Source of the DNA: Klebsiella phage vB_Kpn_K54_rec1
DNA: 64,000 bases
Sequence record: PQ569687.1
Direction: 5' to 3' (one strand)
Shown: piece after piece, positions 12,284-14,504 of the stretch
How the letters are laid out: each line of letters opens with the position of its first letter
Position numbering within the stretch: the stretch's first letter is position 1
The notes under the pieces: generated by a model
Told to the model about the DNA's origin: nothing
The model's database searches: none
The model's input: only the letters and a program-made list of their open reading frames with translations
Made by a program: the position numbers and the translations under genes

Positions 12284-12446
12284 AATGACGAAACACTACA
12301 GCGCCCATCCTGAAGAGCCACGTTCTGGTGATATTCTTGAAGTGGTGAGTGAGAAATATAATGGCTCTTTCCTTGACCACTATATGTGTGAGTGGAAGGG
12401 GATGGATATCGTTGTCTATCCTGATGAATGTGAGGAAGTGCGATGA
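12273..12446 (+). CDS. hypothetical small protein (57 aa)
   Basis: Internal Met with a GGAG RBS; avoids a long overlap with the previous gene. Confidence 0.35.
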   Translation: MKVKMTKHYSAHPEEPRSGDILEVVSEKYNGSFLDHYMCEWKGMDIVVYPDECEEVR

Positions 12447-13054
12447 GCTTCAAATACAAAGTTGGTGACCTGATCGAGGCTGCAAAAAGCGGTGAGATTA
12501 ATGTCTTTGGACATGGCTGTAACTGTTTTTGCACAATGGGGAGCGGAATCGCCCCGTTGATCAAAGAAGCATTCCCTAAGATGTACGCTGCTGATCTGAA
12601 AACTGAGAAGGGCGATAAGACCAAGCTGGGAACCTGTACAATGGCCTTTTTGAGTGATGGATCTCTCGCAGGATTTAATCTGTACTCGCAATACGGCTAT
12701 AATCGTCGTAAACAGGGTCTCAGGGACCTCGATTACAATGCCCTGTACGATTCGATGGTTGAGATGAAAAAGCTCTTACAGAGCTATACAGACGGTTCTA
12801 TGGCTGACTACAAAATTGGCTTCCCTAAAATTGGTGCGGGCCTTGCAGGTGGGGACTGGAATGTCATCGAAGCAATGATCAAATCAATCTTCTTTGATTG
12901 TGATGTGACAGTTTATGTCTTGAAAGAATGGGAAATCCCTGGTTACTACCCTTCAGACGACGGCCCTCTGACATCAGAACAGATCGCTGCCATTCGGGAA
13001 ATGACAAAATGTGGATTATCCACAGGGGGGACTGGATTATCGTGGTTAAATTGA
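12443..13054 (+). CDS. Macro-domain protein (ADP-ribose/O-acetyl-ADP-ribose processing family)
   Basis: Macro signature blocks NVFGHGCNCFCTMGSGIA and GFPKIGAGLAGGDW (Gly-rich phosphate-binding loops). Confidence 0.8.
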   Translation: MSFKYKVGDLIEAAKSGEINVFGHGCNCFCTMGSGIAPLIKEAFPKMYAADLKTEKGDKTKLGTCTMAFLSDGSLAGFNLYSQYGYNRRKQGLRDLDYNALYDSMVEMKKLLQSYTDGSMADYKIGFPKIGAGLAGGDWNVIEAMIKSIFFDCDVTVYVLKEWEIPGYYPSDDGPLTSEQIAAIREMTKCGLSTGGTGLSWLN

Positions 13055-13062
13055 GAGACGGT

Positions 13063-13251
13063 ATGGTAGCACATACCAAAAAGATCGACCTTTATGTGGG
13101 TAATACGGTGTTAACCTATAACGCCCCTCGTGGTCAGAGCTTTGCCATACTACTACTTGGGGTAGAGAAACCAAGTGGTGACGGCACGGGTATTCAGATT
13201 GACGAATGGCTGAATAGTCGTGGCTGGAAGCTGGAGGGTCCTGATGAGTAA
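13063..13251 (+). CDS. hypothetical small protein (start uncertain; alternative 13009)
   Basis: ORF just after the macro gene. Confidence 0.3.
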   Translation: MVAHTKKIDLYVGNTVLTYNAPRGQSFAILLLGVEKPSGDGTGIQIDEWLNSRGWKLEGPDE

Positions 13252-13477
13252 ATCGGTTTTTGTCATCTATGACACTGTTGACAGATGCCTCTGGAACCAC
13301 AAGGCCAAGATTGGATGGATTAGCTCTGGGGCTGCCAAGAATGCTTGGAATCTTGTCCACGCAACCTGGAGTGGGAAGCAGTATTTTGATGACCAACAAA
13401 GATATGTAGTTCTTGAACTTTCTGGCGGACACATTAGCAAATTATTTGAGGAGAATAAAATTGACAAAACCAATTAA
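13244..13477 (+). CDS. hypothetical small protein (77 aa)
   Basis: GGAGG RBS 7 nt upstream of ATG 13244. Confidence 0.4.
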   Translation: MSKSVFVIYDTVDRCLWNHKAKIGWISSGAAKNAWNLVHATWSGKQYFDDQQRYVVLELSGGHISKLFEENKIDKTN

Positions 13478-14504
13478 ATACCCAAGCACCGCACAGTTCC
13501 GTCAGGTTATCCGCACCATGCATGATAAACTGACGTTCGATGGCCTTGATGAAGAGGGTAATATCAAGCGTAAGGTGTTGCCACCGGACGCATATTTGAT
13601 CCCGTACATCGGTACGGTTAAGCTTCACGGCACTAATGGCAGTGTGGTATTCCACTCTGAGGATGAAGTTGTCTTCCAGTCCAAAGAGCGTGTCGTGACT
13701 GTAGGCGACGATAACAATGGCTTCGCGGCCTTCATGTCTCGAAAAGACACCGCAGAGTTGCTTTCCCAGGTTAAATACCTGTGTGGAGTCAATGACGTTG
13801 AGTTCCAGTTCCCGGTTGAAATTGCAGGCGAATGGGCTGGGCGTGGCATTCAGAAAGGTATTGCCATCACTGAAGTAGAGCCGTTCTTTGCTATCTTCCG
13901 TGTGGCTGTGGGACGGGATGGGGCAACGGATACCCTCAACTGGCTACCACCAACGTTCCAGTTTGGAATTGGATTGCCGGATGCTCGTATCTACAGTATC
14001 CTTGACTTTGGTTACTGGATGGCTAATATTCCATTCAATGAGCCAGAGCTTGTCCAGAATGACCTGGCAGAACTGACTCGTGAAGTGGAAAACAAATGCC
14101 CGGCAGGTAAGTTCTTTGGCGTAGAAGGTATCGGTGAAGGAATTGTCTGGTCTCCAAAAGATCCTGAGCTTTCTAAAATCTCTGGCCTGTGGTTTAAAGT
14201 CAAGGGTGATAAACACTCTGTATCCAAAGTTAAGACCCTGGCGGCAATCGACCCAGAACGCCTCGCAAGTATGCGTGAGTTCGTTGAGTACGCTGTGACG
14301 GAAGCACGTCTTGAGCAGGGTGTCAGCGAAGTCGGTCTTGACCAGACTAAGATCGGTGAATTCATTGGGTGGATTAACCGAGACATCAACAAGGAAGAGG
14401 GTGATGTTCTGGAAGCCAGCTCCATGACCATGAAAGATGTTGGCAAGTTTATCAGCAACAAAGCTCGTGCATGGTACATGACTCGTCTGAGTGAGGAGGG
14501 CTAA
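13461..14504 (+). CDS. RNA ligase, Rnl2 family (T4 gp24.1-like)
   Basis: Nucleotidyltransferase motif I KLHGTN (the lysine adenylation site, as in T4 Rnl2 KIHGTN). GAGGAG RBS precedes TTG 13461, so this is the likely start rather than the overlapping upstream Met. Confidence 0.8.
   Translation: MTKPIKYPSTAQFRQVIRTMHDKLTFDGLDEEGNIKRKVLPPDAYLIPYIGTVKLHGTNGSVVFHSEDEVVFQSKERVVTVGDDNNGFAAFMSRKDTAELLSQVKYLCGVNDVEFQFPVEIAGEWAGRGIQKGIAITEVEPFFAIFRVAVGRDGATDTLNWLPPTFQFGIGLPDARIYSILDFGYWMANIPFNEPELVQNDLAELTREVENKCPAGKFFGVEGIGEGIVWSPKDPELSKISGLWFKVKGDKHSVSKVKTLAAIDPERLASMREFVEYAVTEARLEQGVSEVGLDQTKIGEFIGWINRDINKEEGDVLEASSMTMKDVGKFISNKARAWYMTRLSEEG

Follow-up and report, generated by a model that had tools for sequence, protein, structure and literature searches.

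A macrodomain protein and an Rnl2-like RNA ligase from a variable gene slot of a Klebsiella Mydovirus: candidate counter-defense and repair enzymes

Phage macrodomain enzymes that counter bacterial defenses, Adpp and AdfM, were described only in 2025-2026. Tk.4 of phage T4 was named AdfM because its loss makes T4 sensitive to DarTG2 (bioRxiv 10.1101/2025.11.20.689424), and AdfM of the chimallivirus PhiKZ (gp104) strips DarT2 marks from DNA (PMC13309987). Adpp of Vibrio phage Gary (KNV71_gp137) is a purified ADP-ribose-1''-phosphate (ADPR-1''-P) phosphatase that lets NARP1 rebuild nicotinamide adenine dinucleotide (NAD+) after cleavage by RES-domain (aRES) defenses, and one of the aRES systems tested came from Klebsiella pneumoniae (Osterman et al., bioRxiv 10.64898/2026.01.28.702374). 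As for RNA, T4 Rnl2 needs no end healing to reseal a tRNA stem nicked once by a Toprim nuclease (PMC12445682), and NAD+-dependent RNA repair centered on a sirtuin, with Sir2 in place of Tpt1, has been predicted for phages V5 and Mydo (Iyer et al. 2022, PMC9503650). Here, we compare with these systems a macrodomain gene and an RNA ligase gene that lie close together in a 64,000-nucleotide stretch of Klebsiella phage vB_Kpn_K54_rec1 (PQ569687.1), referred to throughout as the window. The phage is a Mydovirus (Vequintavirinae), and the window is 99.1-99.9% identical over its full length to positions 1-64000 of Klebsiella phage vB_Kpn_K54_rec2 (PQ569688.1).

Both genes belong to already-described phage counter-defense and repair families. 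We consider it probable that they encode two separate accessory enzymes, an Adpp-like macrodomain and an Rnl2-like RNA sealer, that occupy a variable slot within a long operon of early genes. The macrodomain protein would hydrolyze small-molecule or nucleic-acid ADP-ribose at the ribose 1'' position. Its likeliest job would be that of Adpp, the conversion of ADPR-1''-P, the product of RES-type NAD+ phosphorylases, to ADP-ribose, from which the phage Adps and Namat would then rebuild NAD+; a second possible or added activity, as in AdfM, would be to take ADP-ribose off DNA thymidines that DarT2 has modified. The ligase would seal 3'-OH/5'-phosphate nicks in structured RNA, for example in tRNA stems or loops cut by host nucleases, and would add to a dispersed phage RNA-repair kit of phosphoesterase, Rnl1, cREC, kinase, Sir2, CCA-adding enzyme and RlaP. 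We infer these substrates and targets, and likewise the independence of the two functions. A first-pass annotation had instead proposed that the pair could form a repair or reversal cassette in the manner of T4 Pnk-Rnl1, an idea that is unproven and that we do not favor.

The macrodomain protein carries GHGCNCFCTMGSGIA at residues 23-37 and IGAGLAGGDW at residues 130-139, the loops from which the first-pass annotation had correctly recognized it. It passed the superfamily threshold of Pfam Macro (PF01661; 23.3 bits, gathering cut-off 22) and matched phrog_335 (E = 3e-65), and tblastn found the family in 2994 of 50,697 phage records. The nearest solved relatives by sequence in the PDB were BT1257, yeast Poa1p, DarG and human TARG1, and a family-profile search of the PDB retrieved BT1257, SCO6735, TARG1, DarG and Poa1p with E values from 4e-20 to 1e-9. 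An AlphaFold model with a mean predicted local distance difference test score (pLDDT) of 90.7 had as its best Foldseek matches TARG1 (E = 3.5e-11, target-normalized template modeling (TM) score 0.85), Poa1p (1.3e-10) and DarG (5e-9), all with probability 1.00; target-normalized TM scores to this fold class ranged from 0.74 to 0.86. By sequence, profile and predicted structure, the protein is a member of the TARG1/Poa1p/DarG class, an assignment that the first-pass annotation had left to later profile searches.

Residues N27, G35, A37, D51, T54, K61, G63, Y81, Q83, Y98, P128, G131, G133, G137 and W139 are invariant in the family. H24 and T31 of the window protein correspond in the alignments to Poa1p H23 and S30, the residues mutated in PDB entries 6lfs and 6lft. 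The column of the TARG1 catalytic Asp125 is occupied by Ala135 (GLAGG) in three alignments, and the catalytic Lys84 has an ambiguous counterpart, either Q83 or the R88-R89-K90 loop. (The TARG1 sequence in this comparison agrees with PDB 4j5r as aligned in the profile search.) We rejected Lys/Asp catalysis of the TARG1 type, since the dyad is not conserved. Absence of catalytic residues, which the first-pass annotation had named as a point against its proposal, thus holds for Asp125 and is ambiguous for Lys84, but the characterized homologues carry the same residues as the window protein at both positions. Membership among the DarG antitoxins was also rejected: NF048014 scored 32.9 bits, where its cut-off is 250, and covered residues 4-64 only, and the second domain, the C-terminal domain with which DarG binds DarT, is missing. 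The protein ends in a lineage-specific C-terminal tail of ~40 aa (residues 165-203, window 12935-13054) that is missing from most family members and is kept in Mydovirus and a few relatives, such as P0126 (74% identity); within it the model predicts, with moderate confidence, a single helix (178-189). The gene's end overlaps the start region of the one that follows.

The window protein is 39-40% identical to Gary Adpp (E ~1e-30), 44% identical to the NARP1-linked macrodomain of PaoP5, and 34-35% identical to T4 Tk.4 over the whole domain (E = 2e-28). The reversal of ADP-ribose marks suggested in the first-pass annotation holds up here, as homologues at 35-40% identity (T4 Tk.4, Gary Adpp) have experimentally supported anti-defense roles. 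The loops HxCNCF..MG.GIA and P.IG.GLAG.DW are common to Gary Adpp and the window protein, and a longer loop after the NLY.Q strand is common to the window protein, Gary Adpp and the other NARP1-linked macrodomains; T4 Tk.4 lacks the Y-N-R-R-K-Q-G loop. A neighbor-joining tree, which was not bootstrapped, put the window protein beside the NARP1-linked clade and put T4 Tk.4 and the macrodomain of Escherichia coli Vequintavirus slur16 in another clade, so that tree and pairwise identities both group the window protein with the NARP1-linked macrodomains and not with Tk.4. The NARP1 core genes are present in the same genome: an Adps-like protein (41% identical to that of Gary) and a Namat-like protein (36%) are encoded at 88160-90701 of PQ569688.1. 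The macrodomain gene is neither in nor beside this operon but 76 kb away, whereas the Gary gene lies between its NARP1 genes; a further difference from Gary Adpp is the extra 40-aa tail. In the complete genome of slur16 the macrodomain is Tk.4-like, and neither NARP1 gene was found. The closer identity, the common loop, the position in the tree and the presence of the NARP1 core, in contrast to slur16, lead us to favor an Adpp-like ADPR-1''-P phosphatase that would act in trans with NARP1. Between genera of the subfamily, the macrodomain subclades differ and occupy different positions, Tk.4-like in Vequintavirus (slur16, locus L175 5980-6438) and Adpp-like in Mydovirus (window 12443-13054), which implies independent acquisition or replacement.

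The second protein was read from an ORF (open reading frame) spanning 13413-14504 (+ strand) with motif I K54-L-H-G-T-N. It matched Pfam RNA_ligase (PF09414; 32.8 bits, cut-off 27) over model positions 2-171 of 171 and phrog_548 'RNA ligase' over its full length (E = 9e-76), and tblastn found the subfamily in 308 phage records. Across 41 homologues the invariant residues are K54, H56, G57, N59, E124, E226, G227 and K246, with K248 nearly invariant; the motif I lysine and motifs III, IV and V of covalent nucleotidyltransferases are present. Translation probably begins at TTG 13461, which stands behind GAGGAG and is the annotated start in Proteus phage Mydo; the start in PQ569688.1, ATG 13518, would drop S9, T10 and Q12, which are invariant among the 41 homologues. 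The model (pLDDT 90.5) has a nucleotidyltransferase domain up to about residue 250 and a four-helix C-terminal domain (265-346). Its top Foldseek match in the PDB was full-length T4 Rnl2 (gp24.1; 2hvr, E = 2.9e-11, 379 columns), ahead of Rnl3, REL1, Rnl5 and Rnl1 types, with a TM score of only ~0.4, which may reflect domain orientation. T4 Rnl2 is likewise built of two domains, the C-terminal one helical, and its KxHGTN motif I and GE.AG.GIQK motif align with those of the window ligase, the aligned motifs including I and III, but identity in the structural alignment is ~16%; tblastn matched residues 24-320 with 24-26% identity to RnlB from T4-like Klebsiella phages. Because the TIGR02307 equivalog cut-off was failed (17.9 versus 197 bits), the ligase is assigned by sequence to an Rnl2-like, divergent sister subfamily (phrog_548) and is not a T4 Rnl2 orthologue. 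The Rnl2-type RNA ligase of the first-pass annotation is therefore confirmed in kind, with this refinement. A DNA ligase was rejected, since Pfam and PHROG both indicate an RNA ligase, T4 Rnl2 is the top structural match, and the phage encodes a separate ATP DNA ligase.

Comparison among phages ties this ligase subfamily to RNA end healing and sealing. Two homologues, P0033 (L010 8001-9575) and P0031, consist of a calcineurin-like metallophosphoesterase (residues 3-187) fused to an Rnl2-like ligase that is 58% identical to that of the window, and a cREC gene lies just 5' of the P0033 fusion in L010. In other phages, homologues adjoin Rnl1, AAA_33 kinase, phosphoesterase, cREC and ATP DNA ligase genes. 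The resealing of Toprim nicks by T4 Rnl2 makes a stand-alone use of the window ligase plausible as well. Four homologues of 455-483 aa, P0058 (ABPH49), P0037 (SSBI34), P0073 and P0116, have an extra N-terminal region of ~110-150 aa with a conserved 'GNL.KD..GRF.D...T....AITRN.AY.LVG' and no Pfam match.

The phage does own a module of the kind that T4 Pnkp-Rnl1 deploys against PrrC. This Pnk-Rnl1-like module lies outside the window at ~93-96 kb of PQ569688.1, so that the parallel drawn in the first-pass annotation belongs to another locus. Its metallophosphoesterase, Rnl1, cREC, AAA_33 kinase and Sir2 genes (93-97 kb) exclude the macrodomain and the Rnl2-like ligase, and the full set at 93-100 kb comprises Metallophos, Rnl1, cREC_REC, AAA_33 kinase, Sir2, ATP DNA ligase and a MazG-like protein. 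This is the sirtuin-centered RNA-repair neighborhood known from phage Mydo (Iyer et al. 2022), and the Namat and Adps genes directly adjoin it (PQ569688.1 88160-100052; loci L174 and L004). Further RNA-repair components, distant from both ligases, are two nucleotidyltransferases encoded at 121535-125905 of PQ569688.1 (L004 27536-31906): one adds CCA to tRNA and has an HD domain, the other belongs to the RlaP family ('RNA repair pathway'). The window itself encodes a NadR-like bifunctional protein with cytidylyltransferase-like and AAA_28 kinase domains (35724-36812) and a PnuC transporter for nicotinamide riboside or nicotinamide mononucleotide (38811-39518), which would together form a second NAD+ supply route of the phage.

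To see how often the two genes occur together, we used 80 ligase-centered and 80 macrodomain-centered IMG/VR loci, 10 kb either side of the ligase, with tblastn and a hidden Markov model check; the loci are redundant by lineage, and tblastn counts of partner genes are lower bounds. A macrodomain was present in 16 of the 80 ligase loci, plus one marginal match. Of these, 13 were Vequintavirinae-like and had the macrodomain on the strand of the ligase, 410-1412 bp upstream of it; the other three had it between Adps and Namat, at a distance of 3.7-7.6 kb. Outside the Vequintavirinae-like lineage, just 3 of 67 ligase loci had a macrodomain within 10 kb. Conversely, the ligase was found in 13 of the 80 macrodomain loci, all Vequintavirinae-like, and the recurrent genes within 10 kb of the macrodomain were Nampt/Namat-like (34 loci), Prs/Adps-like (31) and Sir2 (24). 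Either gene also occupies the same slot alone: SleB directly follows the macrodomain gene in loci L106, L108, L109 and L164, which lack the ligase, and L179 has a ligase but no macrodomain. T4 carries the two genes in separate parts of its genome; Rnl2, by its PDB name, lies between genes 24 and hoc. A universal macrodomain-ligase cassette was rejected on these counts, the partners outside one lineage being recurrently different ones. The simplest reading, drawn from comparative sequence data, is that two accessory genes were independently gained and lost in a variable early-gene slot and that their adjacency was inherited within one lineage.

RNA-repair genes run straight into Adps and Namat in several unrelated lineages. 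In L037 (666-4700), Rnl2-like ligase, phosphoesterase, Rnl1, kinase, Adps and Namat genes, all six, are contiguous, and no macrodomain was detected there; other cases are L026, L028-L031, L176 (PaoP5) and L007 (Gary). RNA-repair and NAD+-rebuilding genes form a recurrent block in these phages. In L126 (6565-16055, a 206-kb viral contig), genes for Nudix, Nampt, NADAR, Macro, a HAD 'Swiss-army-knife' RNA-repair phosphatase, Sir2 and Prs stand in a row. Here NADAR and Macro abut, so that the two known anti-DarT enzyme classes are neighbors within a set of NAD+ salvage genes.

Several observations weigh against two unlinked enzymes of which one is an Adpp. T4 Tk.4 is nearly as similar to the window protein as Adpp is, so that the decision for Adpp over AdfM depends on a short tree without bootstraps and on a handful of genomes, and the macrodomain gene lies outside the NARP1 operon here, unlike the characterized Adpp. 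In addition, adjacency with the ligase persists across Vequintavirinae-like phages whose ligases are 43-50% identical and whose hosts are Klebsiella, Salmonella, Cronobacter, Erwinia and Acinetobacter; the two genes are 9 nt apart in Acinetobacter phage ABPH49 and overlap by 8 nt in Salmonella phage SSBI34 and locus L180. Such persistence could reflect selection for linkage. An AdfM-type enzyme that clears thymidine ADP-ribose from phage single-stranded DNA to counter DarT2, next to an unrelated ligase, would be a serious alternative or an additional function; as the sole explanation we hold it to be possible rather than probable. It draws on the match to T4 Tk.4 (35% identity), the DarTG2 sensitivity of the Tk.4 knockout (10.1101/2025.11.20.689424), the removal of DarT2 marks by PhiKZ AdfM (PMC13309987) and the DarG fold match (TM 0.78-0.82). 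Like AdfM, the window protein is an orphan single-domain macrodomain of an early-gene region. However, the window protein falls in another subclade than Tk.4, NARP1-linked macrodomains are more similar to it, and it has no clear equivalent of the DarG/TARG1 catalytic Lys. The DarG profiles, which match it weakly, do not discriminate, because they also weakly match Gary Adpp and Tk.4 and score the proven phosphatase higher than Tk.4. That the macrodomain is an O-acetyl-ADP-ribose deacetylase cleaning up after the phage's own Sir2 strikes us as very unlikely. TARG1/OARD1 is the best structural match, and Sir2, which the phage encodes, is within 10 kb in 24 of 80 macrodomain loci, but in the window phage it is 83 kb away and the only biochemical datum that we have for the family is ADPR-1''-P phosphatase activity. 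T4 has its macrodomain but is not known to encode a Sir2.

The adjacency that could reflect selection also speaks for a true cassette, in which one damaged RNA would be the substrate of both the macrodomain protein and the Rnl2-like ligase. The macrodomain would either remove ADP-ribose from RNA ends or bases ahead of sealing, or clear the ADPR-1''-P left by Tpt1-like removal of 2'-phosphates by the phage Sir2, as Poa1p, which it resembles, does in yeast tRNA splicing. With Sir2 in the place of Tpt1, such repair would give ADP-ribose cyclic phosphate first and ADPR-1''-P next, the latter being the substrate of Poa1p and Adpp, and the sirtuin pathway predicted for V5 and Mydo (Iyer et al. 2022, PMC9503650) would need an enzyme of this kind for its by-product. 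Pakpunavirus and Thalassavirus phages, like several metagenomic loci, moreover have RNA-repair genes contiguous with NARP1 and a macrodomain gene. We nevertheless judge a cassette unlikely: each gene is found alone in the same slot, the pair is confined to one lineage, the three macrodomains near ligases outside it always sit between Adps and Namat, and the T4 genes are far apart. With Pfam and PHROG, no kinase or phosphoesterase was found among the ten ORFs searched beside the pair (12053-15671), and the remaining genes of the 10.3-15.1 kb unit carry hypothetical annotations, which leaves no end-healing gene recognized in that unit. Rnl2-type ligases, furthermore, are not known to leave a 2'-phosphate. 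A 'thymidylate kinase' (6041-7036) and an HD protein (7000-7509) were considered as Pnk-like healing enzymes and rejected for want of Pfam support. A wider version, a closed NAD+-neutral cycle that couples RNA repair to NAD+ reconstitution, seems quite unlikely to us. Sir2 would act like Tpt1 and take the 2'-phosphate off healed RNA ends, cREC would open the ADP-ribose cyclic phosphate, the macrodomain would take off the 1''-phosphate, Adps and Namat would turn the ADP-ribose into NAD+, and Rnl1 and the Rnl2-like ligase would seal the RNA.

Table 1. Genes and candidate signals around the macrodomain-ligase pair, in window coordinates
Feature	Position	Strand	Evidence	Remark
Promoter-like site TTGACA-17-TATGCT with TG	10311-10339	+	Consensus scan	Overlaps strong hairpin 10312-10335; likely 5' limit of the unit holding both genes
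Small upstream gene, phrog_14198	12243-12446	+	PHROG match	Stop overlaps macrodomain start (ATGA)
Macrodomain protein, 203 aa, phage Adpp/AdfM family, phrog_335 (labeled 'phosphatase')	12443-13054	+	Pfam, PHROG, PDB, Foldseek	
Tiny conserved gene, 62 aa, phrog_8770 (function unknown)	13063-13251	+	PHROG match, E = 2e-30	Only in some pair-bearing relatives
Tiny conserved gene, 77 aa, phrog_8277 (function unknown)	13244-13477	+	PHROG match, E = 5e-37	
Rnl2-like ATP-dependent RNA ligase, 347 aa	13461-14504	+	Pfam, PHROG, conserved residues, Foldseek, tblastn	Probable start
Small gene, phrog_9816	14504-14692	+	PHROG match, synteny	Found after the ligase in relatives too
First strong terminator-like hairpin downstream, AGCCCCGCAATGGGGCT then T run	15104-15120	+	Consensus scan	Likely unit end
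SleB-type cell-wall hydrolase	15141-15671	+	Pfam Hydrolase_2, E = 1.8e-19	Downstream anchor of variable slot (synteny comparison)

The two ORFs of the pair are real genes and not chance ORFs, and both predicted models have a mean pLDDT above 90. Existing GenBank labels are 'phosphatase' for the macrodomain gene and 'RNA ligase' or 'RNA ligase 2' for the ligase gene. Bases 12000-15200 are 100% identical to the same coordinates of PQ569688.1 and to Klebsiella phage vB_Kpn_K45PH128C2; for Proteus phage Mydo and Klebsiella phage KB57, both Mydovirus of the Vequintavirinae, the identity is 97%. As the first-pass annotation had noted, exactly two small genes separate the pair (Table 1). Packing is tight, all on one strand: the second small gene shares 8 nt with the first and 17 nt with the start of the ligase gene. 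The 62-aa gene had no match in Pfam, PADLOC or NCBIfam. The scans for promoters and terminators report consensus matches only and cannot prove co-transcription. They found no terminator-like site on the + strand between 11948 and 15104, and the candidate promoter and hairpin could bound a unit of ~19 genes (~10.3-15.1 kb); with no such site between the two genes, their co-transcription is plausible. Neither tRNA genes nor known RNA elements were found near the pair. From the ATPase gene to the SleB/endolysin-rIIA-rIIB block, the window holds ~17 small genes that include the pair (8998-15671), and the same interval shrinks to one gene in slur16 (L181 13534-15658), behavior suggestive of a variable slot for accessory genes. 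Elsewhere in the window, the DNA polymerase is annotated as three pieces with HNH endonuclease genes between them (~26529-31384), and small fragments are annotated as 'DNA ligase' (~21656-23191); both look like genes broken by mobile endonucleases or introns.

Known concepts are left unchanged by these results unless a link between RNA repair and the NAD+ pathway is proven. If the NAD+-neutral cycle were true, the adjacency of macrodomain and ligase in the Vequintavirinae would be a real pathway link. For the ligase subfamily, the fusions to phosphoesterases and the Rnl1, kinase and cREC neighbors supply the tie to RNA repair. For the macrodomain family, an Adpp-like gene that is unlinked from the NARP1 operon implies that surveys based on operons would miss such genes. 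The practical relevance lies in predicting which Klebsiella defenses, RES-type NAD+ phosphorylases or DarTG2 among them, a therapeutic Mydovirus can overcome.

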